The notes under the pieces were generated by a model. It saw only the letters and a program-made list of their open reading frames with translations, had not been told where the DNA came from and made no database searches. Positions 4,626 to 50,356 of a DNA stretch of 64,000 nucleotides are shown here, one piece after another (positions within the stretch are counted from its first letter, which is position 1; each line of letters opens with the position of its first letter). The position numbers and the translations under genes are program-made. This stretch comes from Bugula neritina (Eukaryota > Animalia > Bryozoa): assembly GCA_964035545.1 (NCBI GenBank), contig OZ037766.1:21812767-21876766 (forward strand). Reading direction: 5' to 3'.

Positions 4626-4967
4626 TGTAATGGGATTACGTAGTACAATAATGGATTTGTCTCCTCCTGTTTGGGAATACTTATAAAAATGTTCTACTAT
4701 CCAATCAGAAAGACCGGAAGGCAAGGTTCCGGTCAAGTGACTGTTCGCGGGTTAGCTAGCAGAAACCATGTTGTTGAGAGCAGGGGCTCGTAGTAGCTAG
4801 ACGTGTTTATAATTGATTGATGTACTGTGGTTTTGACATACTGTTATAATTATGTTTATCGAGTTAAATAAAGGTTATCGTAGCAAGCTCTGTTAGTAAT
4901 TGCTAGTTAAATTGAAACTAAATACGCAGGCAATCCACGCTTGATGATTGTGCTAAAACTCACAACA
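4626..4967 (+). repeat. 5' LTR of element 1
   Basis: Direct repeat of 11299-11641; contains AATAAA. Confidence 0.95.
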
Positions 4968-4968
4968 G

Positions 4969-4986
4969 TGGTGGCAGCGGTGGGAT
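4969..4986 (+). promoter_or_regulatory. Primer-binding site, tRNA-Leu
   Basis: TGGTGGCAGCGGTGGGAT one base after the LTR; complementary to the 3' end of eukaryotic tRNA-Leu (...AUCCCACCGCUGCCACCA). Confidence 0.9.
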
Positions 4987-5023
4987 TTCGCGTATTTCAA
5001 GAGACAATGGAAAGACGGAGAAC

Positions 5024-8000
5024 ATGACAGAGCACACAACAAAACACCCGGGAGGTAAGCCAGCCAGTTTCTTGCATATGGAGGAGGTGTATAGAAGTAA
5101 ACTGACCGCTCCCACCTTCACGGGTGTAGAAGACGTAGAGCAATTCATTGAAGAATTCCACGATGTAGCGAATGTCACTCAATGGCCGCCACAAGTAGCC
5201 CTCGTCAAGCTGCGGGAAGTATTGACGGAGCGCGCTAGACCGTTTGGACAAGGACGGAGCGTGGCGGATATATTCACTACACTACGGAGCTGTTTTGGCA
5301 CCCCCGCTCTGGAAGCCAGAGCCCGTCTACAAGTGCTACGCCAGGCGGAAGGCACTCCGCTCCGCGACCACGTTGCCTTATTGAAGAGGCTGGCGCGGAG
5401 CGCGTACAGTGACCTGCCAGAAGCACACAGACGGAACTTTACTCTCATTGACTTTATGCAATCCCTAAAAGATGTGGGTCTTTGCCATCAGCTACAGGCA
5501 AAGGGAGTGACCACTCTAGAAAGTGCCCTGCAAGTCGGAGAAGACTACCTCCGGGCAGAACGGTTACATACAGGGAAACCAGAAAGCACACAAGTCACCG
5601 CGGAGACAACCCAATCACTCGGAGGGAAGATGGGCCAACTGAGTACCAGGCTGAAACAGATGGCCAAGACTCTTACCAATGCCGGGCCCTCTAACCAAGG
5701 ACAAAAGAGAAAGACTACCCGGAGTGAGAGCAACAACCAGCCAGGGCCTCCCCGCCCCAGAGACCTCCAACCCAGGAAAAGAGAACAACCCCAGGTATGG
5801 CAGAAACCACGACGGACCACCCGCCCTACTGGGCGACAGGAGCCGTTCGTGCTACCACTCACCAACCGCTTTAGCCAGCTACCGGAGACGGAGCTGGCCG
5901 GCGAGGTCCCTCGGGACATCGGAAGGGAACTAAACACCCCTCCGCCGAAGAAGCGGCACCCGCCTACCACCAAACGGACACCACGCCGTTTGACCGAGGC
6001 TACGCATGCTGGGGAAGTAAGGTTGCAGCCACATGGGGAAAGCTACTTCCTGCCCGGGAAGGTAGCCGGCAAGGGCGTTACGTTCTTGCTGGACTCCGGT
6101 TGCAACACGAATCTCCTCAGCCGACGAGTCTTCGATGCCCTCCCTGCTCAGGTGAGGAAGGGGTTAGCTCCCTACACCAGGGAACCTGGCACCCTCGCAG
6201 ACGGGTCGTGTATCCCTTTCTACGGTGTTGTAGAGCTGCCTGGTCGCGTCCGCGACCAGGCTATCCAAGAAACATTTATCCTCAGCCAGCTGGAAGAGGA
6301 TGCTATCCTGGGGACGCCGTTCTTGAAACGACACCAGTGCCACATGGACTTCCATAAGTCCACCATACTAATGGCAGGCCGGGAGCTCTCTTGTGTCGAC
6401 AAGTTCGGTCGCTCCCTGGTCGGGGGCGTGCAGGTGGTCCGTAACTGTACGGTACCCGGCCGCTCCCGGGCGACCATTCACTGCAGAGTGAATGACCGCC
6501 AGCTCTCTGGATTAGGGGTTGTCGAAGGAACGCACCAGAGAATCCAACTCGCCAGCAGCTTAAATCGGCTGACTGACCGGGGGGGGAGATCTTGGTGCAG
6601 TGCGTCAACCCCTTTTCAGAGTCAGTGACACTATCGTCTGGATCCCTATTGGGCCGTTTCCACACGGTCCAAGAGGGAGACATAGGACCTTCGCTGGGCG
6701 AAGCGACGGAGGGTCCCCAAGAGCGCCTGTCTGTACGGCGGGGGACCGTCCCGGAACACGTCCAGGAACTATACCAGTCAGCCTGTGAAGGCTGTGCGGG
6801 CAACAAGGAGCCCCAGGCTATGGCCCAGTTGCTGCGCCAGTATGGGGACGTGTTCAGCAGCGGAGACCAGGACATGGGCTCAACCAAAGCCGTCCGTCAC
6901 GGGATACCGCTAGCTGCCGGGACTTTGCCTATCCGCCAACCTACCCGGAGACTGGGACCAGAGAAGGAGAAGGAGGTCAGCCGACAAGTCCGGGATCTTC
7001 TGGACCGCGGCATCGTAGAGCCTGCACATAGTGCGTGGAGCTCGCCGGTCGTCCTGGTCCGGAAGAAAGACGGCAGTTGGCGGTTCTGTGTGGATTACCG
7101 CAAACTTAACAGCGTAACCATACAGGACGCCTACCCTCTACCTCGGATCGATGAATCCCTGGACGCCTTAGCCGGCAGCAAGTACTTCAGTACTTTAGAC
7201 TTGCTGAGCGGTTACTGGCAAGTCCCCCTCAGTCCCGACGCCCAGGAAAAAGCGGCGTTCATCACCAGGGACGGGCTGTGGAAGTGGAAGGTACTGCCCT
7301 TCGGGTTAACCTCTGCTCCTGCCACCTTCCAGCGGCTCATAGAACAGGTCCTCAGCGGCCTCCACTGGAAGACGCTGCTCGTCTACCTCGACGACGGCAT
7401 CGTGATCTCCCCAGACTTCGCGACCCACATCAGTCGTCTGAGGGAGGTCTTCGAACGACTCCGAGGTGCCGGTCTCAAGCTTAAACCTTCCAAATGCGCT
7501 CTCTTGCAGCCGGAGGTGAAGTACCTGGGGCACGTAGTCGGCCGTAATGGCATGGCGACGGACCCCGATAAGGTGCGAGCTGTGGCCGACTGGGTCACCC
7601 CCCAGGATTTGACCGGACTCCGGGCTTTCCTGGGGCTGGTAGGGTATTACAGATAATACATACCAGACTTTGCGGGAGTTGCACAGCCGTTAAATCGGCT
7701 CACCGCAAAGGGGGTGGCCTGGCAGTGGACACCAGTCGAACAGAGGGCATTCGACAGTCTCAAGAGCCGCTTGCTAGAGGCTCCAATTCTGGCCTACCCA
7801 GACCCCGCTCTGGAATATATCCTTGACACAGACACCAGTGACCAGAATGTTGGTGCTGTGCTGTCGCAAGTGCAAAAGGGCCGTGAAGTAGTCGTAGCTT
7901 ACTACAGCAAATCACTCTCACCTCCAGAGCGCAATTACTGCACCACTCGCAAAGAGTTGTTGGCAGTAATCAAGTCAGTGAAACACTTCCGGCCTTATCT

Positions 8001-10302
8001 CTACGGTAGGCCGTTCCGCTTGCGGACGGACCACGCCTCCTTGATCTGGCTGTGTAAGAGGGCTGAACCGTCCAGTCAAGTCGCCCCATGGCTCGAAGTC
8101 CTAGCCGAGTTTTCATACCGGATCGAACATCGACCCGGTAGGAAACACGGCAATGCGGACGGACTGAGTCGGCGGCCGGACGAGGGGTGCAAACAGTGTC
8201 ACAACATCGAGAGAAGGGACGGGGGTCCTCCAAGATCCGAGTTGGAGACACTGGACCACCCTGGAGTGAGCTACGACTGGGACCAAGGTCAACTCAAGCC
8301 AAGGAGTCCTGACCCACCGGAGGCTGTCAACAACCTCCGCGCCAATCCTGTCTTAGCTCGTAATGTCAGAGAGCTGCAGAAACTCCAGGAGGACCTCCCT
8401 GGGGTGGTAGCCGACGTATATCGAGCTAAACGGGAAGGGCGACGACCCAGCGAAGAACAGCTGCGGCAGGGGTGCGCCGAGTTACGGCTGTACTGCCAAC
8501 GCTGGGACTCCCTGCGGATCGGGCCAGATGGTCTGCTGACCATCACCTTGGCCGCCGACCAGGGACACCCTGGTCGAGAAAGGGTGATCTGCCCAACCGC
8601 CATGCGCCGGGAGCTAGTATGGGACACTCACCGACAGGCTCACGCCGGAATTCGGAGGGTGCTTACCAAGCTAAGGCTCCGGTGGTATTGGCCCCAAATG
8701 GAGCGTGACGTCCGACTAAGGATCAAACAATGCGAAGTCTGCCAGGCCAGCAAGCATGGCCGTCTTCCTAGGGAGGCGGGACGGCGTAGGCTCTATGCTG
8801 GCAGGCCCTGGCAGGTGGTAGCTGTTGACTTGGTCGGACCCATGCCCCTCACCCCCAGAGGAAACAGCTGGATTCTAGTGTTGACCGACCACTTCACTAG
8901 GTGGGCAGACGCACTGGCTATCCCAGACGCGTCTGCCCCGACAGTGGCCAGCACACTAGACCAGCGTGTATTCTGCTACTTTGGGTTGCCCGAGCAACTA
9001 CACTCGGACCAGGGGTCGCAATTCCAGTCTCAACTGATGAGCGATCTCTGCCGCCTCTGGGGAGTAAACCAAAGTAGGACCACTCCATACCACCCTCAAG
9101 GTAACGGAGTGGTCGAACGCAACAACCGGATGCTGGGCGACGCACTCCGTAGTCTATTACTCGGCCGAGGCCAGGAGGAATGGGATCTCGTGTTGCCACA
9201 GGTTACGAGGGCCTATCGCAGTGCGCCCCATACCAGCACCGGCGAGACCCCCAACTTCTTGACCTTCGGTCGTGAGACACGAGTGCCCGACCACCTCGCC
9301 TATCACATTCCAGAACCAGAATACTCTGTCCACGAGTACGCTGGGGAAGTGGTAGAGCGTCTGAGAGTCGCACACGAAATACTGCGAGATAAGCAGTGGC
9401 AGGTGCGACAGGAAGACGCTGATGAACCACCCCTCTACCAGACCGGAGACTGGGTCTGGATGATCAACTACCGTAGGCGTCGAGGACAGGCGGCTAAACT
9501 ACAGCCTAAGTTCGTAGGACCCTACGTAGTAGTTGAGGTGATGCCCAATCACACTTACAAGTTGGAGCGGTCTGGACAAATATCTGTCCAGAATGAAGCC
9601 CGCTTGAAACCCTATTGGGCTAGCCCAGGTGCGGCCGGGGGTGCCCCCCCATTGTTAGAGCCCAGGAGGCAGACAACAATGCGCGGGCGGCGGCGGCATA
9701 AACCCAATGATGAGTGGGTCATGCCACGGACAGAAGACTTGGCAAGACAAGAGAGGCCACCTCCCCCGACGGGGCCGCGCCCTCTGCTTCCAGAGCCAAG
9801 CCGTCCGGCCCCAGGACTACCACCACCACTTCCGGAACTAAATATACTTCCGAAAGTGCAAAACCCCCCCACGGGAGGGGCTCCGTCCGGAGAGAACATA
9901 GGGGAAGAGAGAATGACAGCTGACGGGAGGCAGGAAGCACCACCAGTGGAGAATAACAACCCACTGGTGAGTACACCACCTCCCTCACCAGCTACACCAC
10001 CTTCCCCGGCGTCTACCACTAGTACATCTCCCCCCCTTGAAAGGGGACAACGTACTAGAAGACCACCAGCTTATCTTCAAGACTTCGTATGCGACCGCAT
10101 TACAAGCGGCAGGTATGAAAGTCCAGCTGGGCGCCGTACGGAAAGACTGACAGCAAAGCGTGGGAATTGTGAATATCACGGAAAAACCAAGTTTTGCGAA
10201 AACGGTATTACCACTCTCCGGGCACATAGTTCCGGTCTCGCACAACAAACACGCTGCCCAGCCTTCTCCTACGCCGACGCGGTCAAGAGTAGATGTACGT
10301 AG
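5024..10302 (+). pseudogene. Gag-Pol polyprotein of element 1 (disrupted)
   Basis: Gag then aspartic protease (FLLDSGC) in ORF 5024-6628. Frameshift in the G-run near 6579-6587. RT (YPLPRID, LPFGL, YLDD) 6592-7656. Premature TAA at 7654-7656 (CAA in element 2). RNase H, HHCC zinc finger, DDE integrase and GPY motif in 7714-10302. Confidence 0.93.
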
Positions 10303-10350
10303 AAATCATAAACATACCACTCTCTCTCCTCCTTGGATAACAGACCGGAA

Positions 10351-11022
10351 ATGGACAACGGACTGCCCGCGGTGCTGCGTCGAAGACATAGATGGGTGTC
10401 GCGACGGACAGAGCGGCAAATTGAAGAAGCCTGGGGACCGAGTAGGTCACAACATACCTGCCATGTGTGTTACGAAGAGCTTCCCTCACACCAAGGACTA
10501 CGGCTGCGTGTGAATGCACACTTCCTGCTACGTTTCTGTCCGTGTAGATTTCACGACGTATACCCCTACCCCGTCGTGGCTCATATGATGGACTGTTTCG
10601 CAGGCGAAGGCTATGTAGTGGACGCGGACAACTACGATGAATACCTAGAAGCGGTCAAACCAATGGTTAAGAAGGCTTTAACCTGGGCCGCATTATCCTC
10701 CGGATTTTATACATTGCTAACAGCCGCACGTCAAAAGTCCCCTATGGTGAAAACGGTCGCCGCAATCATACCGCGGCTAGACAATACCCCTATGGAAGCA
10801 TCAGACTCTCCAGAAGAAGCGACGCCAACCCCAACCAGGCCTACCCGACTAGCAACCGTCGAAGAAAGACTCTCACGGTTACAGGATGAACTCACCCAGT
10901 TGGCTCCCGACCTACTCAGTACCACCATGGGCCTTAGTGAATTGAAGGGCTCAGTAGGACGTCTAAAGCGTAGACTACGTGCACGGCAGGCACGACACCG
11001 GATCGAATCCCTACGAAAGTAG
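10351..11022 (+). CDS. Gypsy accessory ORF3 (zinc-finger plus coiled-coil protein, function unknown)
   Basis: Open frame after the integrase stop, ATG at 10351. Homologous to ORF 19559-20380 (LRRRxRWVS, CxxC..VNAH, FCPC..DVYPYPV, RLATVEERL..LAPDLL). Confidence 0.75.
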   Translation: MDNGLPAVLRRRHRWVSRRTERQIEEAWGPSRSQHTCHVCYEELPSHQGLRLRVNAHFLLRFCPCRFHDVYPYPVVAHMMDCFAGEGYVVDADNYDEYLEAVKPMVKKALTWAALSSGFYTLLTAARQKSPMVKTVAAIIPRLDNTPMEASDSPEEATPTPTRPTRLATVEERLSRLQDELTQLAPDLLSTTMGLSELKGSVGRLKRRLRARQARHRIESLRK

Positions 11023-11298
11023 GAGCTGACAGTTGACAATTCCATCCCACATGTTCCCGGGATACTACGTTGTGATCGTGTAAATGCTTGACTGCTAATG
11101 ACCTACGATCCAGGACTCTCTCTTCATAGCTGGCCAGTTGTACGCTGGCTATCCGTATCTTACTTATATATCATATATGTCGTACGTTTGGTATTTCTTT
11201 TCTTTTTCTTTGTGGATTTTCTTGACTTATGTTATTTTTGCATTATTATACTACTTTTGTTTTTATCAGAAAGTAGGGCTTTCTGCTGGTGGGGGCGG

Positions 11299-11641
11299 TG
11301 TAATGGGATTACGTAGTACAATAATGGATTTGTCTCCTCCTGTTTGGGAATACTTATAACTATGTTCTACTATCCAATCAGAAAGACCGGAAGGCAAGGT
11401 TCCGGTCAAGTGACTGTTCGCGGGTTAGCTAGCAAAAACCATGTTGTTGAGAGCAGGGGCTCGTAGTAGCTAGACGTGTTTATAATTGATTGATGTACTG
11501 TGGTTTTGACATACTGTTATAATTATGTTTATCGAGTTAAATAAAGGTTATCATACGCAAGCTCTGTTAGTAATTGCTAGTTAAATTGAAACTAAATATG
11601 CAGGCAATCCACGCTTGATAATTGTGCTAAAACTCACAACA
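11299..11641 (+). repeat. 3' LTR of element 1
   Basis: Direct repeat of 4626-4967, preceded by the G-rich tract TGGTGGGGGCGG. Confidence 0.95.
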
Positions 11642-12438: not shown

Positions 12439-13256
12439 ATATTCATAATTTATTCATTGACATTCAATTTCATGATTTCACTGACTATCAGTATCAGTGT
12501 GAGTCTTATTCAATCGTTGGATTCACATTTGCCTTTGGTGAAGCCTTACCAATGATGAGATTTCTTTAAGTTTAGGTTTGACTTCCTTTTTAGTTTGAGA
12601 TCCATCCATGATGACAATCACTAGAATTTGAAGGTGATGATTTTCAGCAATAATAGTTTACACTTACAGCAATGACTATTAGTTGGAATAGAATAAGTTT
12701 ACAACAGCCAGGGTTAGAGCGTACTCACGCCGTTGGTAACTATAGTAATATTATGCCGCTCGAAGTCGCAATAACCTCAACTAACGAGATGCTTTTACGC
12801 CCTTTAAACCTTCGACAAAAGGGCCTTGAAATCAGTGTGGTATATTAAGAGTGTTGACTTTAAACCATGAAAAATCATTATGTCGCTAATGGTACCGCAA
12901 GTTTATATAAGTTATAAAGGAAAAATTTTGCCACTTTTGTGATTTTATTTTTTTTTATTATATGTGTCCATTTTTTTAGTTTTGTTTATTGGTAAAGTTT
13001 TTAAACATATTTTCAATACATATAAAATTTTAAAAAAAATTAAAACTTAATCATGCACGTGAATACAAAGCTATAAAGTTTAAGCTTCGCTGTGATTACA
13101 ATGTGAATATGAATTGAATAATGCTTGCAATAACCATTTTACACAAAATACGTTGCAGTTGCTATAAATGTAAGACTAGTAAATTGGATGCAAATAGGCA
13201 CGGTAATACTATTTAATTTATGCTATTTTTGAAATTTGTAGTAAATATTCGGCATG

Positions 13257-13474
<218 letters not shown>

Positions 13475-13779
13475 TGTGGTGGTTCGTGGAACTACCAGCA
13501 GCACAACATGTAGGGTCGCGTAATTGACCCGGAACAATGGATAGCCAATTAGCGTAGTTGATAGTTAGCAGCAATTGTAGTTTCCCGCTGCTAACTCAGT
13601 CGAAGCTAGAGTGTGAAATAGATTAGATGTGTAACTTGTTTGGAGATAATGTATCGTTTTTATAATGTATAATTGTGTGTAAAATATACTCGTTCACTCG
13701 ACTTATCCTGGTGCAGTTCTATAGTAAATAAATAGACTCTCTGGATAGCACATCAACCCTAAATCTGAAAATCTTAACA
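13475..13779 (+). repeat. 5' LTR of element 2
   Basis: TG..CA direct repeat of 20679-20983. Confidence 0.95.
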
Positions 13780-13780
13780 G

Positions 13781-13798
13781 TGGTGGCAGCGGTGGGAT
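13781..13798 (+). promoter_or_regulatory. Primer-binding site, tRNA-Leu
   Basis: TGGTGGCAGCGGTGGGAT, identical to the element 1 PBS. Confidence 0.9.
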
Positions 13799-13810
13799 AG
13801 TGCATCCAAG

Positions 13811-14764
13811 ATGGAGACTGAAAATGCTGGAACTCAACCACCGGCAATCGAAGGTGAGCGTAGAGACAATGCTGTAGAGACAATGCCTGTTAACCATGTA
13901 GTAGAAGAGCGAAGGGTTCCGCGAGAACTAGCTGAGGACCGCTACAGGTTAAAGGCGCCCACCTTCACGGGTGAAGAGGAGGTGGAACAATTTATCCAAG
14001 AGTTTAGCGACGTAATGGACGTCGCTCAGTGGCCCCCTAGGGTGGCCTTGCTGAAGCTTAGAATGGCATTGATGGACAAAGCCAAGCCCTATGGGCTGGG
14101 CGTAGACATTGATAATATCTTTGCTTCTCTGCGGGCCCGCTTTGGCCTCTCTGCTACAGATGCCAGGGCCCGATTGCAGAGGTTGCGGCGTGATCCCCGC
14201 ACCCCGCTGCGGGAGCATGCCGCCGCGGTCATGAAGCTGGCACAGATCGCGTACAGCGACTTGCCCCCAGTCAACCGCGAGAGGTATACCCTCGACGCTT
14301 TCATAGCATCTGTCGACGATCTGGGTCTCCACCACCAGTTTCTAGCTAGGGGAGTCACCACCGTTGAAGATGCTCTGACTGAGGGGGAAGCTTACCTCCT
14401 AGCTAATCAAATGCATAAAAGTCGCGGAAGCTCCCGCCAAGTGGAGATAGACCGCGCAGACACGGCCGCGGGACAAGGGGAGGAAACCCCCGCCGCGGCT
14501 GCCGTGTCCCAGTTGGCGACGGCATCAAAAGTCACTCAACTGACGGACATGCTAGCCAAGCTGATAGCAACACTGACACCACAAAACCCAGTGAGTACCG
14601 CCCCTGAGCCCATGCGGCCATCGGCGCCGCCACAGGGAGAAACGGTCAGTTTTTGCTGGGAGTGCGGAAATCAAGGACATTTCCGCCGATATTGTCCCTT
14701 CCTAAATCAGGGGTTAAACTACCGCGGCCCGCAGATGTTCCCACCTCCTGCGGGCCGACGATGA
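13811..14764 (+). CDS. gag: Gag of element 2
   Basis: 317-aa ORF just after the PBS; capsid-like region homologous to element 1 Gag; zinc knuckle CWECGNQGHFRRYC. Confidence 0.9.
   Translation: METENAGTQPPAIEGERRDNAVETMPVNHVVEERRVPRELAEDRYRLKAPTFTGEEEVEQFIQEFSDVMDVAQWPPRVALLKLRMALMDKAKPYGLGVDIDNIFASLRARFGLSATDARARLQRLRRDPRTPLREHAAAVMKLAQIAYSDLPPVNRERYTLDAFIASVDDLGLHHQFLARGVTTVEDALTEGEAYLLANQMHKSRGSSRQVEIDRADTAAGQGEETPAAAAVSQLATASKVTQLTDMLAKLIATLTPQNPVSTAPEPMRPSAPPQGETVSFCWECGNQGHFRRYCPFLNQGLNYRGPQMFPPPAGRR
14713..14757 (+). promoter_or_regulatory. Candidate -1 ribosomal frameshift signal
   Basis: G_TTA_AAC in the gag frame (14713-14719), 5-nt spacer, perfect 10-bp stem CGGCCCGCAG/CTGCGGGCCG (14725-14734 / 14748-14757). 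Confidence 0.6.
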
Positions 14765-17700
14765 AACCTCCAGGGAAGAAGAAACGCAGGTCACCCAGAC
14801 GGGTACCGCAACCAACAGTGGCAACAGCCACGACGGTCCAGCAAGGGGCTTCGCCCCGCAGCTGCCTTTTCTATGCCCCTTCACAACAGATTCACAGGAC
14901 TACAAGTCCAAGAATCTGGATGGGAGCCCACAAAGGTAGCTGAGAATCTAGCCTCGGCACCCCCGAGGCCTACCTACCACCGCCCTAAGAGACCTCCTTC
15001 GCGACCCAAAGCGAGGGAGGTACTCCCTGCGAGAGTAAGGCCTGAAGGGAGAGTTCAGGTGCAGCCCCATGGGAACAGCTATTTCTTGCCCGGTAAACTG
15101 GAAGGCAAAGCTGTTACTTTCCTCATTGATTCGGGCTGTACCACAAACCTCTTAAGCCGCCAACTCTTCGACACCCTCAGTACTAGGGTCAGGGGCAAGA
15201 TGGAAGCATACGAAGGGGAATACGGCACCCTCGCTGACGGGTCATGTCTTCCTTTCTATGGTATAATTGAGCTGACGGGACGAGTCCGTGATCAAACGAT
15301 CCAAGAGACGTTCATCGTCAGTCAGCTCAAGGAGGATGCTATCCTCGGGATGCCGTTCCTTAAACGGCACGGATGTCACATAGATTTTAGCAGATCTGCA
15401 ATGATGATGTCCGGGCGGGAACTCGCCTGCGTCGACAAGTTCGGCCGCCCTTTAGTGGGAGGAGTGCAAGTGGTACGCAACCGTATCATACCGGGCCGCT
15501 CCCGGGCTACCATTCACTGCAGGGTGAATAGTAGCCGGATCTCTGGACTCGGGGTGGTTGAAGGCGCGCACGAAAAGATCTAACTTGCCAGCAGTCTGAA
15601 TCAGCTGACTGAGCAAGGGGAGATCTTAGTGCAGTGCGTCAACCCCTTTACCGAGCCTATCAAGCTCCCGGCTGGGTCGATGCTGGGCCGTTTTCACTCT
15701 GTTCAGGAGGGAGACGTAGGCCCGTCGCTGGGTGATGCGACGGAGGCACTCCCTCAGTGCCCTATTCAGGGACGAGGGGCAGTCCCAACACATCTCCGGG
15801 AGTTATACGAAACAGCCAGTGGCGGCTGCGCGAGTAACAGAGAACGCCAAGCTATGGCCAAGTTACTACGCGACTACGGTGATGTGTTCAGCAGCGGAGA
15901 GCATGACGTGGGACTGACTGGAATTGTCAGACACGAAATACCGCTGACTGCAGGGACAGTCCCTGTCCGGCAGCCCACACGCAGGCTGGGGCCGGAGAAA
16001 GAGAAGGAGGTTAGCCGACAAGTACGGGATCTTCTGGACCGGGGACTGATAGAGCCCGCCCATAGTGCGTGGAGCTCGCCAGTCGTACTGGTCCGGAAGA
16101 AAGACGGCAGTTGGCGGTTCTGTGTGGACTACCGCAAACTCAATAGCGTAACCATACAGGACGCCTACCCTCTACCTCGTATTGACGAGTCATTGGACGC
16201 CCTAGCCGGCAGCAAGTACTTCAGTACGTTAGACTTGCTAAGCGGCTATTGGCAGGTTCCTCTGAGTCCCGACGCCCAAGAGAAAGCGGCGTTTATCACA
16301 CGGGACGGGTTGTGGAAGTGGAAGGTGCTGCCCTTTGGGTTAACCTCCGCCCCAGCCACCTTCCAGAGGCTGATGGAACAAGTCCTTAGCGGACTCCATT
16401 GGAAGACACTGCTAGTCTACCTCGATGATGTCATCGTAATCTCTCCAGACTTCGAGACACATGTCAGTCGTCTGCAGGAGGTTTTCGAGAGACTCCGAGG
16501 TGCCGGTCTTAAGCTCAAACCTTCCAAGTGCGCTCTATTGCAGCCGGAGGTCAAGTATCTGGGGCACGTTGTCGGTCGAAACGGCGTGGCAACGGATCCC
16601 GAAAAGGTACGGGCAGTAGAAGACTGGGTCACCCCCCAAGACTTGACCGGACTCCGGGCTTTCTTGGGGCTGGTAGGGTATTACAGGCAATACATACCAG
16701 ACTTTGCGGGCATAGCCCAGCCGTTAAACCGGCTCACCGCAAAGGGAGTGACGTGGCAGTGGACTCCAGTCGAACAAAAAGTGTTCGACCGCCTCAAGGG
16801 CTGCCTACTAACGGCGCCCATCTTGGCCTACCCAGACCCCACTCTGGAGTACATCCTAGACACGGACGCCAGTGACCAAAATGTTGGCGCTGTGCTGTCA
16901 CAAGTGCAGGAAGGCCGAGAGGTAGTAGTAGCCTACTACAGCAAGTCTCTCTCACCCGCTGAACGAAATTACTGCACTACCCGCAAGGAGCTGCTGGCAG
17001 TAATCAAGTCAGTGAAGCACTTCAGACCCTACCTATACGGCAGGAAGTTCCGGCTGCGTACGGATCATGCCTCGCTGATCTGGTTGTGCAGGAGAGCAGA
17101 GCCCTCTAGTCAGGTCGCCCGGTGGCTCGAAATCCTAGCTGAATTCTCATACCGGATCGAACATCGACCGGGCAAGAGACACAGCAATGCGGATGGGTTG
17201 AGTCGCCGACCTGACGGAGGTTGCAAACAGTGTCTCAACATCGAGAGGAGGGATGGAGGTCCCCCGCGATGCGAGTTGGAGACGCTGGCTCATCACGGAG
17301 CACCGTTTGACTGGGATCAAGGTCAACTCAGGCAAAGAGTTGATGAGTCCCCGGAGGATGTACAAAACCTCCGCGCCAACCCTGTACTGGCCGGTAATGT
17401 TCGAGAGCTGAAGAAGCTCCAAGAAGAGCTGCCTGGAGTCGTGGCAGACATATACCGGGCCAAAAGGGAAGGGCGACGACCCAGCGAGGAACGCATACGA
17501 CAGGGATGCGCCGAGTTCCGGCTATACTGTCAGCGTTGGGACTCGCTGCGGATCGGGCAGGATGGGTTGTTAACCATCTCTCTAGCTGCCAGCGGCAGAC
17601 ACCCGGAAAGGAAGAGGGTAGTCTGCCCCACAGCCATCCGCCGTGAGTTGATTTGGGATACTCACAAGCAGGCTCACGCAGGGGTCAAGCGAGTGATGTC

Positions 17701-19278
17701 CAAATTACGACTTCGGTGGTATTGGCCACAAATGGAGCGTGATGTCCGGCTCAGAGTCAAACAGTGTGAGATCTGCCAGGCCAGTAAGCATAGCCGCCCC
17801 CCTGGTGAAGCAGGACGGCGGAGGCTATACGCTGGTAGGCCCTGGCAAGTAGTCGCTGTAGACCTGGTCGGACCCATGCCCCTGACCCCCAGAGGCAATA
17901 ATTGGATCCTAGTACTAACCGACCACTTTACTAGGTGGGCGGATGCTCTGGCTATCCCAGATGCATCAGCCCCAACAGTGGCCAGGGCACTAGACCAACA
18001 TGTATTCTGTTATTTTGGGCTTCCCGAACAGATACACTCTGATCAAGGCGCTCAATTCCAGTCTCAACTGATGAGCGACCTTTGCCGCCTCTGGGGAGTA
18101 AATCAGAGCAGGACCACCCCCTACCACCCTCAAGGTAACGGGGTGGTGGAGCGCAACAACCGGATGCTAGGTGATGCACTCCGGAGTCTCCTCCTTGGAC
18201 GAGGTCAAGAGGAATGGAATACGGTGTTGCCGCAAGTCATGCGTGCATACCGTAGCACCCCACACACCAGTACTGGTGAGACCCCAAACCTCTTGATGCT
18301 CGGGAGAGAGACTCGTGTCCCTGACCATCTCACCTATCACGTTCCAGAGCAAGATAACTCAGTCCACGAGTATGCCAGTGAACTAGTGGAACGGATGAAG
18401 GCCGCACACGATATACTGCGCCAACAGCAGTGGAAGGTGCGGCACGAAGATTCCGATGAACCACCTCTCTATCAAAGGGGAGATAAGGTGTGGATGGTCA
18501 ATTACCGTAGGCGCCGCGGACAGGCTGATAAGCTGAAGCCTAAGTTCGTAGGCCCCTACGTGGTCGTCGAGGCTATGCCCAATCATACGTACAAGATTGA
18601 GCGCTCAGGACAGGTGTCTATCCAGAATGAGTCTCGCTTGAAACCGTATTGGGCTAGCCCCGGCGGAGTGGGAGAAGCCCCCCCCCGTTATTAGAGCCCA
18701 GGAGGCAAACAACAACGCGCGGGCGACGGCGGCATGGACCTGAATACGAAGTGGTCATACCGCGGGAAGAAAACTTGGTGAGAGAGGAGCGGCAGCTTTT
18801 GTCAACAGAAGCGTGTCCGCCACCGCCAAGTCTAATTCCATCACTTCCAGAAACCGAACCGGTTCCGGAAGTGCAAACCCCCACGGAGGGAGGGGCTCCA
18901 TCCGGAGAACAAGAAGAGGTGACCGCTAACGGTGAAGTAGAGACGCCATTAGAGGCCCCTACTAACGAACCGGCAAGCGTGTCACCCCCCCTAGAAAGGG
19001 GACAGCGTACGAGGCAACCCCCCGCATACTTGAAGGACTTCGTATGTGACTGCGTTAAAAGCGGCACACATGAAAGTCTAGGGGAAAACCGTACGAGAAA
19101 AGAATCGAGCAAATGTGGGAGTTGTCAACACCACGGAAACATCAACTTTTGTATCGGCGGAAATAGAAACAAAATTCATCCGCCGGGTGCACAAAGTCTT
19201 AATCACGCACCCCAACCACGTTGCTCGATCTTTTCATACGCTGATGCAGTCAGGAGTAGACGTGTTTCTAAGCAGTAG
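14765..19278 (+). pseudogene. pol: Pol of element 2 (protease, RT, RNase H, integrase), disrupted
   Basis: FLIDSGC protease; TAA at 15581-15583 where element 1 has CAA; YLDD RT, DAS RNase H, DDE integrase, GPY; frameshift in the C-run 18678-18686; tail ending FSYADAVRSRRVSKQ. Confidence 0.93.
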
Positions 19279-19302
19279 TTCAAACCATTTCACACATTCA
19301 GT

Positions 19303-20380
19303 ATGTCTTACGACAACAGATCATGGGGTGAGTTAACTATATCTTAATACGAAACTAGATTGCATCGCTCAGCTCTGACTCACTGAGTCAATCGAGCTGG
19401 AGATAGGTTAGTGAAATACCGTAGTAAGAACTCAGTTTGACTTAGAGATTTTTATAATCTCATTGCAATACGTGTTCTATCTGACTATTCACTACCATTA
19501 ATCTCTACGAGGTAACTGAATTAGGAGTTGCCAAGCTGTTCAAGCTGACAACACAGCAGTGTACTGTATTAACACTGTTGAAACTTTTTCAGATTACACT
19601 CGACCCGCTACAACCAGGGTACGGGATAGAACACTTCCCGCTCCGTATCCGGAGGAGTATGCTAGTGGTGACCGGCCTGAGCCACTACGCCGCCGTTGGC
19701 GGTGGGTGTCTCCACAAACAGAGGAAGAAATAGAAACGGCCTGGGGGTCCAGAGGACGGACGAGATGCCAGATCTGTGGTGAAGATTGCGCCTCTCACCG
19801 CTCCCTTAAACTACACGTCAATGCTCATCTCCTACTAACATTCTGCCCCTGCGGGTACAATGATGTGTATCCCTACCCCGTCACCAGACACCGAGCGGCG
19901 GGCTGTTTCCCTGGAGAAAACTACGTGGTCGACGCTAAGCTATACCCGGAGTTCCTCACACTTATACGACCTCTGGTGAAGAAGGCCATGTTGTTAGCCG
20001 TTCTGTCCTCGGGGTTCCAACGTGTGTTAGACAACGCCCGCCAACAATCCCCGTTGGTGTCTGACCGTCCTCAAATTACATACACCCCCGAGGAAATTAC
20101 ATATCCAGAAGAAGGAGAGATCCCCCCTACACCGGCGAAGAGACGAACCAGGTCCCCCAGTCCACCCTTGCGCCGCAGACGGACACCGTCCCCAGACCCA
20201 GTACGCCTGGCTACAGTAGAAGAACGCCTCCTACGATTACAAGAAGAGTTCACCCAGCTGGCACCAGATCTACTTAACACTACAACAGGACTCTTCCAGC
20301 TAAAGGGATCCGTATGCCGTATGAAACGGAAACTGCGTACATGCCAAGCCAAGCACCGGCGTGCCCAACAAGGACTCTAG
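19303..20380 (+). CDS. Gypsy accessory ORF3, predicted spliced (19303-19327 joined to 19593-20380, 270 aa): C2H2 and C2HC zinc fingers, Arg/Ser/Pro-rich linker, coiled coil
   Basis: ATG at 19303, donor G|GTGAGT at 19327/19328, acceptor CTTTTTCAG| ending at 19592; the join is in frame. Homologous to element 1 ORF3. Confidence 0.7.
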
Positions 20381-20678
20381 TTAGACTACCCGGAGTACTC
20401 CAACTCCGCCTCTTGGGAGAAGCCAAGATGTCATGTAAATGTTTGACTGCTTAACAGGTTATCCCCTGTCTAACACCACAGCTAGCTAGTATTCCTCGTC
20501 TATCTACAGCTGGCCAATTGTATGCAACGGATCGTTACGATGACTCTGTCTATTATTATTATGTCTCTTCCTGTATATTATGTGTTATTTTTGTCCACTG
20601 ATGTATGCGGTTACTAATGAATGTTTTTTTTTTATATATATATATATCAGAAAGATGGCTTTCTGCTGGTGGGGGCGG

Positions 20679-20983
20679 TGTGGTGGTTCGTGGAACTACC
20701 AGCAGCACAACATGTAGGGTCGCGTAATTGACCCGGAACAATGGATAGCCAATTAGCGTAGTTGATAGTTAGCAGCAATTGTAGTTTCCCGCTGCTAACT
20801 CAGTCGAAGCTAGAGTGTGAAATAGATTAGATGTGTAACTTGTTTGGAGATAATGTATCGTTTTTATAATGTATAATTGTGTGTAAAATATACTCGTTCA
20901 CTCGACTTATCCTGGTGCAGTTCTATAGTAAATAAATAGACTCTCTGGATAGCACATCAACCCTAAATCTGAAAATCTTAACA
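20679..20983 (+). repeat. 3' LTR of element 2
   Basis: Direct repeat of 13475-13779. Confidence 0.95.
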
Positions 20984-21193
20984 ATATATTATAATAATAT
21001 ATTATATAATATAATAATATAATATATTATTATATTATATATTATATTATATATATTATATATATATATAATATCATATAAAATATATTATTATATTATA
21101 TTATTTACAAAATATATATATATATTATAATAATATATTATATATTATTATATATTATATTATTATATATATATTATACAAGTATAATAATAT

Positions 21194-21225
<32 letters not shown>

Positions 21226-21736
21226 TATAATAATATATATATATATATTAGAATAATATATTATATATTATTATATTATATATTATATCATATATATATT
21301 ATATATATATAATATCATATGAAATATATTATTATATTATATTATTTATAATATATATATATATATTATAATATATATATATATATTATAATATATATTA
21401 TATATTATTATATATTATATTATATTATACATATATATATTATACAAGTATAATAATATTATATATAATATATATATATTATAATAATATATATATATAT
21501 TTTAATAATATATTATATATTTTTATATTATATATTATATTATATATATATATATATTTTAATAATATATTATATATTTTTATATTATATATTATATTAT
21601 ATATATATAATATCATATATAATACATTATTATATTATATATGATATATATATATATATTATAATAATATATTATACATTAATATATCATATATTATATA
21701 TATATAATAATATCATATATAATATATATATATATA
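20984..21736. repeat. AT-only degenerate microsatellite/minisatellite tract
   Basis: Almost exclusively A/T with recurring TATAATAATATATTATAT-like units. Confidence 0.9.
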
Positions 21737-21895: not shown

Positions 21896-22111
21896 ATCTA
21901 TGGGTTGATCACCCAGACAACAATCCATCCAGAAACGTGACACTCTGAGAGGGCGAATTACTCGGCCAGTCACTGCGACTACTGAACTGCTGTGCTCGTC
22001 CTGGACACTCCTTGCCAGCACAGCGTACTTCTTTAGTGGAGAGGGGTGCTTAAGCAACTGACAAAACCCTAAGTATCCTTAAACTTCTTGTCAGCATAAC
22101 CCGATTGAATC

Positions 22112-25100
22112 ATGAAAAGAAAAATGAACACGAAATCATACTGGCAGGACGTCGCCCAGGATAAAAAGGTCCAAATTTCTAAACTCAACCTTGCATCATG
22201 GAACATACGAACAATGCTAGACCGGGAGAACACAGAAAGACCTGAGAGAAGGAGTGCAATCATTTCATCTGAACTACAGAAGTATGGCATCGACATTGCA
22301 GCACTGAGTGAAATCAGATTCAAAGATACAGGTAACATTCGTGAAGAGTCAGGCTACACCATTTACTGGAGTGGCAAAACTGCATCTGAGCGCAGTGAAT
22401 CAGGCGTGGCTCTTGCTATCAGGAACGAACTTGTTTCGAGACTAATCGAAGAGCCAAAGGCTATAAGCGACAGACTGATGTCACTCAGGGTTCCTCTGTC
22501 TGATGAGCGATGGTGCACTGTGATAGCTGTCTATGCTCCCACGATGACAAACAGCCAAGAAAACATCAACAGATTCTATGACCAACTGAATCAGGCTCTA
22601 AGATCAGTCCCAGCAGCTGATAAGATCTTACTCATGGGGGACTTCAATGCTAGGGTTGGACAAGATCACTCAACCTGGCCCGGTGTGATAGGCAAGTATG
22701 GCTGCGGAAACCTGAACTCCAATGGTGAACTTCTGATCTCAGTCTGTAGTGAACATCAACTGTGCATTACCAACACCTTCTTCAAGCATAAACCAGCTCA
22801 CAAGTTTTCTTGGATGCACCCGAGAAGCAAGAACTGGCATCTCATCGACTTTGTTATCACACGACAACGTGATCTACCAGACATTCTAGACACAAGGGCG
22901 ATGAGAGGGGCGAATTGCATTACTGACCACATCATGATCAGGTCAAAAGCGAAGCTCAGAGTGAGGAGAAAAATGAAGAAAGGGAGAACACCTTGCCAGA
23001 AGCTGGACGTTTCTCGACTTAAGAATGAGGAAGTAAGACAAGAACTGGAAAAGTCCCTTGCTGGGAAACTGAACTCTGCTCCAGAGGGCGTGGAGAGTAA
23101 GTGGAGAGCATTCAAAGAGATAGTTTATGCAGAGTCAAAAGTGCACCTCGGCACTGTCAGCAGGAAACATGAGGACTGGTTTGACGAGAATAATGATGAG
23201 CTTCAAGAACTCATCCAGAAGAGAAACAAGGCCAGAGCAGACATGTTAACCAGGAATACTCGCTCGAACAAGTCAAAGCTTAGAATGGCTGGCAGAAAAC
23301 TCACAGGAAGATGCAGGGAGCTCAAGAACGACTGGTGGTTGGCAAAAGCTGCTGAACTGCAACGGTTTGCTGACACTAACGACATGAAAGGCTTCTACCA
23401 AAGCATGAAAACTGTTTGGGGTCCAAGAGTGAGTCATCCTGACCAGCTCCTGGCCAGTGACAGCTCAACACTCCTGACAGAAAAACAAGATCTTCTAGCG
23501 AGATGGACAGAGCATTTCAGCAAGCTACTAAACGAGACTCCAGATATTGATGACAACATCATTGAGAACCTGAGACAAGCTCCCATTCAGGACTGGATGG
23601 ACGATTGCCCAGATATTGAAGAGATCATCAAGGCAACTTCGATGCTAAGTGAAGGGAAATCACCTGGCTCTGATGGCATTCACCCGGAGGTTATCAAAAG
23701 GGGAGGGCCCAAACTAATAAGTACTCTCCATGAGATAATAAAGGAGGCATGGAAAACTGCTGTAGTCCCTCAAGATTGGAAAGATGCCCAACTTATAACC
23801 ATCTTCAAAAAGGTGATCGGAAGCTGTGCGGTAACTACAGAGGTATCTCCCTGCTCTCAATTCCCGGTAAAGTTTTTGCTCGTGTCCTTCTGAATAGACT
23901 GACATCATATGCAGAAAACTTCCTACCCGAAACTCAGTGTGGATTCCGTAGTGGAAGGGGAACAGCAGATATGATATTTGCACTGAAGCAGATACAGGAA
24001 AAATGCATCGAGCAAAATATGCCCCTGTACATGGTCTTCATTGACTTCACCAAAGCGTTCGATACTGTTGATCGGGCGACCCTGTGGAAGATCTTACAGA
24101 AACTCGATTTTCCCAGTCACTTCACCAATCTTATCAGCGCTCTCCATATTGGCATGAAGGCCTCAGTCAAGCTGAAAGGGGAGTTATCTGAGTCGTTTCA
24201 GGTCAACAATGGTGTGAAACAAGGATGTGTGTTGGCTCCAACGCTATTCTCTATTTTCTTATCGGCTGTTCTACAGCACGCATTTGAAAACTGTGATAAA
24301 GGCGTCTGGATTCAAAGTAGACCTGGAGCTGATCTGTTCAATGTGAACCAATACAAGTCAACAACAAGAACACAAAAAGTATTGGTTAGAGAACTCATGT
24401 TTGCTGACGACACTGCCTTCGTTGCACACAGCCATGGCGATGCACAGGAATTAGTCAACAGATTCGCCAGAGCTTCCAAAGCTTTTGGTCTGAAGATCAA
24501 TATCAAGAAAACGGAAACGCTCTACCAACCGGCACCTGGAGCCCATGACAGTGGTGACAGTATCTGCATAGATAATGAAGACCTTGCCAACGTCAATAGG
24601 TTTAAATATCTTGGGTCTACAGTGATGTGCAACAACAAGATGGATGAAGAGATTCATACAAGGATGTCCAATGCTTCAATCTCATTCGGCAGACTAAAGA
24701 CCAAAGTGTGGTACAATAAGGATCTGTCATTCAAGACCAAGTGTACAGTGTACAGAGCCATAGTCCTGTCCTCTCTGCTCTATGGAGCGGAGGCCTGGCC
24801 TGTATACAGGATAGCCGCTCACAAATTCAACACCTATATGATGAGACATCTACGCCAGATCTTGAACGTGAAGGGGTGGGATTTCATCTCGAATGAGGAG
24901 ACTCTAGCACAGGCAAATCTACCCAGCATGTATGAACTACTCATTCACAAAAACCTGAGATGAGCTGGTCATGTGCATCGAAAGGATAACTCTAGATTAC
25001 CTAAGCAAATTCTCTATTCACAACTGAAAGAAGGCACCCGTGGTGTTGGCAGGCCGCGACTGAGATTCAAAGATACCGTTAAACGCAATCTAAAAGACCT

Positions 25101-25210: not shown

Positions 25211-25376
25211 TATAATATTATATTATATATTATATTATATATATTATATATATAATAATATCATATATAATATATATAATATATTATTATATTATATATA
25301 TTATATATATAATAATATCATATATAATATATTATTATATTATATATTAAATTATATACATTATATATAATGATAT

Positions 25377-25418
<42 letters not shown>

Positions 25419-25445
25419 TAATATTATATATTATATATATATAAT

Positions 25446-25474
<29 letters not shown>
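25211..25474. repeat. AT-only microsatellite tract
   Basis: TA/TAA repeats; remainder of the core of the 12833-25914 element. Confidence 0.9.
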
Positions 25475-25476
<2 letters not shown>

Positions 25477-26410
25477 TGCCAAATATTTACTACAAAATTC
25501 AAAAATAGCATAAATTAAGTAGTATTACCGTGCCTATTTGCATCCAATTAACTAGTCTTACATTTATAGCAACTGTAACGTATTTTGTGTATAATGGTTA
25601 TTGCTAGCATTATTCAATTCATATTCACATTAAAATCACAGCGAAGCTTTAACTTTATAGCTTTGTATTTATGTGCATGATTGAGTTTTAATTTTTCTTT
25701 TAATTTTATGTGCATTAAAAATGTGTTTAAAAACTTTACCAATAGAAAAAATTAAAAAAAATGTACACATAAAATAGAAAAAAAATAAAATAACAAAAGT
25801 GGCAAAATTTTTCCTTTATAACTTATATAAACTCGCGGTACCAATCTCGGCATAATGGCGCCCATATGATTCCGTAAGATTTGCTAATGGCAACACTCTT
25901 AATATACCACACTGCTTGAAATGCCTTGATAAAAAAAGAGAGAATATATAAGCTTTTTCTTACCGTTCAATTTGTTACAAGAATTGTTTTACCACGTAAC
26001 TTATAGCACGCACGCCTGGAAAAAAACCCTATGTAGGCCTATAACTTAGGTCTTAGAAGATAGTTAGAAAGTATTTAAAGCATGATATCGTATTTGAAAA
26101 TGTGATAATAAGTATCTCCATCCCTCATCCTTGTTCCTTCCTGACTTGCATATATAATTCTTTCCATTATAGCAATTTTTGTCAAAAGAAGAACATTAGT
26201 ATTTTTCATTAAATTACACTTTTAAAATTTTGCAGTGTTTTAAAATCCTTGTGTGGGTACTAGTATGGTGTTGTGACATTTGTTAAAGTTTCTGCTATTA
26301 TGAAATGAGTCCAGTTAGTTTTATATCTGAATTTGAATGGTTGTTCGCTTAGTCCTACATAACACATTTCCCTCATTATTTTCTCATCTTGTTATAGTTA
26401 TAGGTGAGCC

Positions 26411-49330: not shown

Positions 49331-49490
49331 CAGTTAGGTGCAGAAATGGAGATTTTGACCAAAAATTCCTCACTGAATAGCATTTTGTTGAAAGCATTTG
49401 ACTTGTGTTAGATGAGTCCTACCAACATATTTGGAATTGTAGAAAGCTATGGATACAACTCTTAGACAAGGGCTGACTAGTGTATCATAT

Positions 49491-50300
49491 TTGTTAGATT
49501 GTTGGAGATTTGTTGAAAGTGTTAGACAGAGCCCTATCGAATTATTTTGTTAGATTGTTAGATTGTTGGAAATTCAATGCTTTTATATATCTACACTTTT
49601 GGAGAATTGTTGAAAGTGTTAGACAGAGCCCTATCTGATTATTTTGTTAGATTGTTAGATTGTTGGAAATTCAATGCTTTTATATATCTACACTTTTGGA
49701 GATTTGTTGAAAGTGTTAGACAGAGCCCTATCTGATTATTTTGTTAGATTGTTAGATTGTTGGAAATTCAATGCTTTTATATATCTACACTTTTGGAGAA
49801 TTGTTGAAAGTGTTAGACAGAGCCCTATCTGATTATTTTGTTAGATTGTTAGATTGTTGGAAATTCAATGCTTTTATATATAAAAAAGTGTTGGAGATTT
49901 GTTGAAAGTGTTAGACAGAGCCCTATCTGATTATTTTGTTAGATTGTTAGATTGTTGGAAATTCAATGCTTTTATATATAAAAAAGTGTTGGAGATTTGT
50001 TGAAAGTGTTAGACAGAGCCCTAATTGATTATTTTGTTAGATTGTTAGATTGTTGGAAATTCAATGCTTTTATATATTTACACTTTTGGAGAATTGTTGA
50101 AAGTGTTAGACAGAGCCCTATCTGATTATTTTGTTAGATTGTTAGATTGTTGGAAATTCAATGCTTTTATATATAAAAAAGTGTTGGAGATTTGTTGAAA
50201 GTGTTAGACAGAGCCCTATCTGATTATTTTGTTAGATTGTTAGATTGTTGGAAATTCAATGCTTTTATATATCTACACTTTCAGAGATTTGTTGAGAGTG
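49491..50300 (-). repeat. Tandem array, about 8 copies of the 97/98-bp monomer (inverted orientation)
   Basis: Reverse complement of the monomer of 50357-61030. Confidence 0.95.
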
Positions 50301-50356
50301 TTTGTACATTGTTTCTTCCTGCAATGTATTTGTTGAATGCTTCTACGCTGTGAAGG

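Follow-up and report, generated by a model that had tools for sequence, protein, structure and literature searches.

A selected non-Env third gene in a Ty3/Gypsy family of Bugula neritina: probable gag-leader splicing and a candidate role in regulating unspliced element RNA

The window analysed here is a 64,000-nucleotide stretch of the Bugula neritina genome (GenBank assembly GCA_964035545.1, contig OZ037766.1, positions 21,812,767 to 21,876,766 of the forward strand), and coordinates count from its first letter. Two related Gypsy elements lie in it, and their genes and signals read on the plus strand. Element 2 (13475-20983) is bounded by identical TG...CA LTRs (13475..13779 and 20679..20983) and carries a polypurine tract (PPT; 20668..20678) and a primer-binding site (13781..13798) common to both elements, which we take to be that for tRNA-Leu. 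Element 1 (4626..11641) is a decayed copy with an ATAG target duplication, and its LTRs (4626-4967 and 11299-11641) are six mismatches and one indel apart. The TG...CA LTRs with primer-binding site, PPT and target duplication, and the pol order protease-RT-RNase H-integrase found in both, identify the carriers as Ty3/Gypsy elements. Their pol DNA is 79% identical across 3.7 kb; their LTRs have no BLASTN similarity except at the PPT junction.

The gag gene of element 2 (13811..14764, 317 aa) ends in a zinc knuckle, a weak Pfam hit, and is followed by pol (14765..19278), which encodes protease, RT, RNase H, integrase and a Pro-rich tail. A likely -1 frameshift signal lies near the end of gag (14713..14759), where G TTA AAC, presumably the slippery site, precedes a stable hairpin (z -3.85, 0/200 shuffles). 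The Gag stop is conserved: 27 of 32 relatives place it 16 residues past an L-N motif. Stop read-through at 14764 was rejected in favour of this frameshift signal, given the conserved Gag end. In the subfamily of element 1, gag and protease share one frame, in contrast to the Gag stop of element 2. The Pro-rich integrase tail (18700-19278 in element 2, 9640-10302 in element 1) closes with a Cys/His-bearing segment, finds no match in Pfam and is under weaker purifying selection (dN/dS 0.34). Both copies are broken. In element 1 the reading frame shifts near 6.6 kb, and a stop codon lies at 7656. Element 2 keeps gag and ORF3 intact and its LTRs are identical, yet its pol is interrupted three times (near 14.8 kb, by a stop at 15581-15583 and near 18.68 kb); it is probably a young non-autonomous copy mobilised in trans, or else the frame breaks are assembly errors.

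The surroundings are rich in other repeats. A simple repeat of 96-98% AT surrounds element 2 (13250-13474, 20984-21460), and the flanks of element 1 are ordinary 73-79% AT DNA; two copies are too few to reveal targeting of AT repeats. A non-LTR retrotransposon ORF with endonuclease and RT, split by one frame break, occupies 22109-24963. It and element 2 are flanked by an inverted pair of about 660 nt (12822-13472 and 25263-25925; 86% identical), perhaps two copies of some other repeat. Further along, inverted arms of 1079 nt, 99% complementary and 2008 nt apart (33066-37231), represent a foldback-like element or a local duplication. A satellite array at 49487-61000 repeats a 97-98-nt unit some 110 times in a higher-order arrangement; its block at 49487-50302 is inverted.

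Both Gypsy elements carry a third ORF, ORF3, in sense between integrase and the PPT. In element 2, its main exon (19593..20380) comprises 262 codons from an acceptor at 19592. In element 1, ORF3 spans 10312..11022, the acceptor region is deleted and Arg replaces the first His of the first finger. The homology of the two ORFs, proposed in a first-pass annotation of this DNA, is confirmed by 52% protein identity over 219 columns (pairwise E 1e-68). Over the 207 codons that align, the identity of first, second and third positions is 0.65, 0.73 and 0.35, and a saturated pS of 0.82 stands against a pN of 0.29 (pN/pS 95% interval 0.28-0.43, uncorrected for saturation). The coiled coil by itself has a pN of 0.15, and the fingers are 57% identical. 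Since synonymous change has reached saturation but the protein is preserved, ORF3 is a real gene under purifying selection, and the suggested dN/dS check refutes neutral evolution.

Relatives of ORF3 are numerous and anonymous. A single-sequence search returned 65 and a word-seeded profile search 174; among the 120 of these 174 that are listed, lengths run from 80 to 592 aa, all come from JGI, ENA or Logan assemblies, and none is a named protein or has a Pfam domain. Family counts refer to 133 relative proteins, many of them fragments of decayed copies, so each count gives the copies covering a site and not independent lineages. Neither metagenome contigs (ORF3 and PPT patterns) nor viral contigs (ORF3, PPT and integrase scans) yielded DNA of the relatives, so the family evidence consists of protein gene calls. 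In two relatives, P0138 and P0042, internal deletions join Gag to RNase H or the integrase tail to ORF3, from which internally deleted copies appear to be common in this family.

ORF3 contains a tandem zinc-finger-like region (19766..19906), a C2H2 finger followed by C-x-C-x12-H-x3/4-C. Its eight putative zinc ligands are 87-99% conserved: C 77/84, C 78/85, H 80/92 and H 88/94 in the first finger (C2H2 ligand columns 87-94%), and C 91/95, C 91/96, H 100/101 and C 123/127 in the second. Of 71 relatives, 55 retain the full C-x2-C-x12-H-x3-H motif, and the second pattern is present in 69 of 78. The heptad repeat and two core helices are conserved as well, as are an L-R-x-R-x-R-W-V-S block upstream and a tail of basic residues (K 97/102, R 93/100, R 81/87), which places the conserved basic residues at both ends of the protein. 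Pfam finds zf-C2H2 and Zn_SUZ12 below threshold, with PF00096 at 13.1-14.5 bits against a gathering cut-off of 25.2.

The Pro-rich linker (20069..20200) is variable. Element 2 has the C-x2-C-x12-H-x3-H and C-x-C-x12-H-x4-C motifs, basic linker and heptad repeat that the first-pass annotation quoted, but the basic linker is not family-wide: it is Arg-rich only in the subfamily of element 2, and at least seven Lys/Arg occur in just 4 of 76 linkers. The median linker is net acidic (4 basic, 6 acidic residues). The element 2 linker has one RS/SR dipeptide, the median across the 76 is also 1, and these linkers contain no conserved RS-dipeptide repeats of an SR/RS domain. The Arg-Ser-Pro label thus describes a subfamily trait. 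A conserved Arg-rich RNA-binding motif of the Rev/Rex kind is likewise absent from the ORF3 family. Leucine-rich export-like patterns in element 2's ORF3 fall within the finger and a core helix, where they are unexposed.

The C-terminal coiled coil with its basic tail (20204..20360) opens with R-h-x-x-h-E in 86 of 108 relatives, a trimer motif defined in the available text of PMC5940361 and found in L1 ORF1p. Three copies of the coil are predicted to self-associate as a trimer, with a score of 0.64 against 0.02 for the best of three controls, at least 92% of contacts in common between runs and pLDDT of at least 83. In a calibration on two copies, 21 of 30 solved pairs passed this mark, as did 7 of 16 animal cases but none of the 23 single chains, and the pass of the ORF3 coil may stem from likeness to solved coils. 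The oligomerising coil postulated earlier is therefore upheld as a model prediction.

No described family emerges for the protein, as had been suspected. AlphaFold2 gives the full ORF3 a pLDDT of 58, confident in the C-terminal helix and uncertain in the remainder; the finger region modelled alone reaches 67 and shows the helix of a C2H2 finger. The full model finds no Foldseek match and otherwise just generic coiled coils with Z up to 5.7. The finger region has no significant PDB match by Foldseek, none in BFVD and a best Z of 3.3 in a wide search; its top Foldseek rows are all DNA-bound fingers, none significant. At these model confidences, missing fold matches are not evidence of a new fold. 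By sequence, ORF3 finds nothing in the PDB below E 0.2 and only generic zinc-finger leads in the ESM Atlas, all sub-0.9. The finger pair bears what we take to be a resemblance to R2 retrotransposon fingers, which the PDB sequence search, the finger-region Foldseek search and the wide fold search do not support. Pfam, PDB and BFVD are thus without a significant match, and every listed relative is nameless.

Envelope features are also missing, in agreement with the annotation. The top 19-residue Kyte-Doolittle windows score 1.51, with two lysines inside, and 0.88 in the other copy; both window ORF3s lack a signal peptide and a C-terminal membrane anchor, their hydropathy maxima being non-terminal and their termini charged. 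Pfam, PDB and BFVD return no F-type or gB-type envelope homology for models of low-to-middling confidence. In this Gypsy family, the third gene is real, under selection and not of the Env type.

The start of ORF3 points to splicing. The acceptor at 19592, at which TTTTTCAG ends, has TATTAAC near 19567. Among the 27 of 133 relatives that reach the acceptor, 22 read S|D, two S|G, two L|D and one E|D, and S|D is what TCAG|A would be expected to give. A conserved donor, AAG|GTGAGC (13854..13859), lies in gag 43 nt past the gag ATG, and the Gag start with its 14-codon leader (13811..13853; 43 nt, phase 1) would be the first coding exon of a predicted 276-aa protein. Its counterpart in element 1 is GAG|GTAAGC at 5055, 31 nt past the gag ATG; both donors are in phase 1, matching the need of the acceptor, and this is the sole GTRAGY site common to the two elements. 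The pol-internal donors at 17643 and 17784, tried as first exons, were rejected because element 1 does not keep them. The first-pass annotation missed the gag donor, a better site in the same phase as its own choice. Its statement that no in-frame ATG precedes the core holds for element 2 but fails for element 1, where an ATG stands at 10351; an internal Met also occurs in 23 of the 27 relatives reaching the acceptor. Nor is the intron general to both elements: element 1 has 91 nt between the pol stop and the W-V-S motif, against 425 nt in element 2, and its deletion of about 330 nt takes out the acceptor.

The relatives support the same join. A search with the element 2 Gag gave 133 hits, and of the 120 listed, 46 span the leader and 74 do not. 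The junction residue in these 46 is Gly in 39, Ser in four, Asp in two and Arg in one; Gly and Ser both permit GT, so 43 of 46 are donor-compatible. The E-G-E columns at the junction are 0.89/0.85/1.00 conserved, against 0.28-0.52 at leader residues 4-13, across seven groups at <60% identity with leaders of 10 or 14 residues. Conservation of the donor is that of residues, not bases, and E-G-E might be retained for protein reasons. The E|D relative, P0021, begins with 14 non-ORF3 residues and continues with D and ORF3. The same 14 residues open Gag P0188 and its kin; the Gags go on G-E, and P0021 goes on D-H-T-R. Because its leader matches the Gag N-terminus, P0021 appears to be the product of an exact leader-to-acceptor splice, although it is the only such case among 133 proteins, was called as a gene on a 5.3-kb contig, and may represent either a transcript or a copy templated by spliced RNA. 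In RNA data, the 15 of 85 joints that are listed include neither 13853-19593 nor 19327-19593, and depth over 19475-19705 is zero. Run X1 has a 219-nt contig over 19741-19959, which does not show transcription because the data are contigs only and possibly DNA. Judged from these sequence patterns, ORF3 is very probably translated from an env-style subgenomic RNA in which splicing links the donor at 13854, after the gag leader, with the 19592 acceptor. The evidence supports a requirement for splicing in the ORF3 subfamily of element 2.

The first-pass annotation had instead proposed a mini-exon just upstream of ORF3 (19303..19327). Its sites exist as described: CAG at 19299-19301 precedes an ATG at 19303, GTGAGT follows at 19328, and the join to 19592 across a 265-nt intron is in phase and encodes 270 aa. 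Such an arrangement is unusual but not strongly so, since 210 of 5000 shuffles of 19279-19560 yield a GTRAGY with an in-phase upstream ATG. The sole listed variant inside the mini-exon, at 19323, is synonymous, and the gene call of a diverged relative, P0025, opens V-S-Y about the donor, which fits GTGAGY, yet dynamic-programming alignment places that start 4 nt off. Against a leading role, none of the 133 relatives has a mini-exon-like start peptide (best score 21 of 48), which is weak evidence because gene callers on unspliced DNA skip joins; there is no TATA-like box within 19000-19303; and when the mini-exon is included behind the gag leader, ORF3 no longer reads in the frame set by the start of gag. 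Element 1 cannot settle the matter, as the missing 330 nt or so include the acceptor; its S-L-D-N-R was considered as a mini-exon counterpart and rejected, matching ORF3 residues of its own subfamily. Expression of ORF3 mainly through this exon and its intron, whether from an internal start or by way of another splice upstream, is decidedly improbable, and by these sequence comparisons the mini-exon is most likely not the main first exon. As a first exon only, it can coexist with the gag leader as a minor isoform; it may otherwise be a frame-breaking cassette or a decoy donor, and the donor at 19328 may still be a real signal.

The non-coding stretch between this donor and the acceptor (19328..19592, plus strand, 265 nt) is conserved and holds the second donor-like site, hairpins, the branch-like site and the acceptor. 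Gene calls of five relatives extend 5' of the acceptor and were aligned as possible bases to 19280-19592. P0025, whose ORF3 is 47% identical, matches the stretch at 97 of 129 fixed bases with a score of 105.8 (shuffle maximum 31); three others lie far above shuffles (62/82, 69/90 and 66/92 fixed bases), and the fifth is weak (24/32). These identities are inflated by gapped local alignment, and the near-saturated synonymous distance to the five relatives is an assumption from their ORF3 identity. In element 2, every one of its three reading frames is interrupted by stops. As a whole it folds with z -2.42 (3/100 shuffles); its individual hairpins are non-significant against shuffles (z -1.98, -0.69 and -1.20), including a predicted 9-bp hairpin (19554-19580) whose loop and 3' arm contain TATTAAC. 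Located within the long intron, the stretch would be present in unspliced RNA alone and is a candidate response element; it could also be a splicing, packaging or promoter signal independent of ORF3.

Retroviral Rev, Rex and Rec are small, oligomerising, basic export adaptors made from spliced message. ORF3 is comparable in its predicted oligomer and in the candidate structured element within its intron, but its Arg-rich motif is unconserved, it has no clear export signal and it has zinc fingers; no homology to Rev, Rex or Rec was found. The excerpted text of PMC10309623, which also describes HIV Rev, presents a closer system: CERV of Cer1, a C. elegans Ty3/Gypsy element. CERV is required for export of unspliced genomic RNA, and the same text describes a spliced CERV mRNA, an N-terminus shared with Gag, a leucine zipper, a Cys-rich finger and a predicted multimer, and proposes default splicing to the CERV message (PMC10309623). 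As far as that text goes, CERV is a 517-aa product of five exons, has H, M and G-protein-like domains and a C4 loop, is predicted to form rings, and has no homologues beyond nematodes (PMC10309623). Both are non-Env Gypsy accessory proteins with a coil, a finger and, for ORF3 putatively, a Gag N-terminus. ORF3 differs in its size of about 276 aa, its env slot, its C2H2 and C2HC fingers and its predicted C-terminal trimer, and its architecture of fingers, helices, linker and one long helix does not match CERV in size or domains. This separation is by description, and export is shown for CERV alone; by analogy, ORF3 may work in a CERV-like way without belonging to the CERV family.

Other known arrangements share parts of this layout. 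In the idefix subclade of Drosophila errantiviruses, according to the available text, env is expressed through a subgenomic RNA whose splice attaches a Gag peptide (bioRxiv 10.1101/2023.08.03.551782; PMC2585583). It likewise is a third ORF after pol with a gag-leader splice, which for ORF3 is putative, but ORF3 lacks F-type Env traits, a signal peptide, an anchor and a Pfam envelope hit. Bdelloid LTR retrotransposons have ORF3s (PMC5408684) and plant LTR elements carry additional ORFs (PMC7264820), which between them comprise GDSL esterases, DEDDy exonucleases and env-like or antisense ORFs. These resemble ORF3 as family-specific ORFs between pol and the 3' LTR, but none described in the available portions of those papers is a spliced zinc-finger/coiled-coil protein. 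In Drosophila MDG1-group elements, the non-Env accessory ORFs sORF1 and sORF2 encode unspliced proteins of 70-110 aa upstream of gag, sORF1 nuclear and sORF2 a membrane protein, as far as the accessible text states (PMC11952523); ORF3 is downstream of pol, putatively spliced and about 276 aa. A spliced zinc-finger/coiled-coil ORF3 in Gypsy is undescribed in the largely open-access literature searched, and CERV is the sole Gypsy example among the nine papers listed for unspliced-RNA export. Repbase or GyDB may contain a consensus whose third ORF is unannotated. The gene layout is known, from the idefix-type env splice and CERV, and none of the known families in the searched libraries matches the ORF3 protein.

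These parallels suggest a regulatory cycle. Element RNA would be spliced by default to the ORF3 message; ORF3 would enter the nucleus through its basic ends and bind the structured, conserved stretch at 19328-19592 of unspliced RNA; bound ORF3 would then shift output, by retention and export, to genomic and gag-pol RNA, a feedback switch. That gag-leader-spliced ORF3 is a Rev/CERV-like regulator licensing unspliced RNA is our tentative preference by analogy, somewhat short of an even chance as a whole; if gag-leader splicing is granted, action as an RNA-level regulator is about evenly balanced. A stronger version is doubtful: an independent complex-retrovirus-style switch, in which trimeric ORF3 acts on a response element in its own intron, splicing is tuned by the second donor together with a branch site held in a hairpin, and a second unrelated Rev-like system outside retroviruses joins CERV. 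The non-conserved Arg-rich linker counts against the Rev-like reading that it had suggested.

C2H2 fingers bind DNA more often, and together with the DNA-bound Foldseek rows they count against an RNA-level role. With the same gag-leader splice, ORF3 might instead be a DNA-binding, trimeric transactivator or anti-silencing factor for its own LTR. The canonical C2H2 finger of most relatives, the sub-cut-off zf-C2H2 and Zn_SUZ12 hits and the mostly acidic, Pro-rich linkers fit such a protein; but each chain has a single canonical finger beside an atypical one, the LTRs in the window are dissimilar although the fingers are 57% identical, and the conserved non-coding stretch is left unexplained, making this reading rather unlikely. 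The predicted trimeric coil with its L1 ORF1p motif, the conserved basic tail and the insertion of element 2 within an AT simple repeat would suit a protein that travels with the particle or pre-integration complex, as an L1 ORF1p-like RNA chaperone or an integration-targeting adaptor (e.g. for TA-rich repeats). Such a role is unlikely: ORF3 has no RRM-like domain, its Gag leader is too short to direct packaging, and element 1 sits in ordinary DNA, a single insertion being no pattern. Cell-to-cell particle movement by a trimeric coil and hydrophobic helix, with ORF3 as an Env substitute, would draw on the env slot, the env-type splice and the 12 of 135 sequences that have some 19-residue window >1.6. 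It is very improbable given that the window copies lack a signal peptide and anchor, that the zinc-ligand pattern is of an intracellular type, and that ORF3 is dissimilar to sORF2, a short membrane protein upstream of gag in the available text of PMC11952523. That ORF3 is a captured host fragment or a functionless chance ORF, as might be imagined from relatives that are metagenome gene calls and often fragments, is scarcely credible in the face of the refuted neutrality, the ligand-level conservation and the lack of a named host protein among the hits.

The gag-leader-spliced regulator of unspliced RNA preferred here bears on a largely open question, how simple LTR retrotransposons export such RNA. 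A reporter could test the idea, since its parts are mapped and small: a donor, an acceptor, the 265-nt conserved stretch and the protein of 276 aa. If ORF3 binds DNA instead, it would still be an element-encoded regulator of no known family. An env slot and a probable gag-leader splice that serve a soluble zinc-finger protein bear on how retroelements gain accessory genes.
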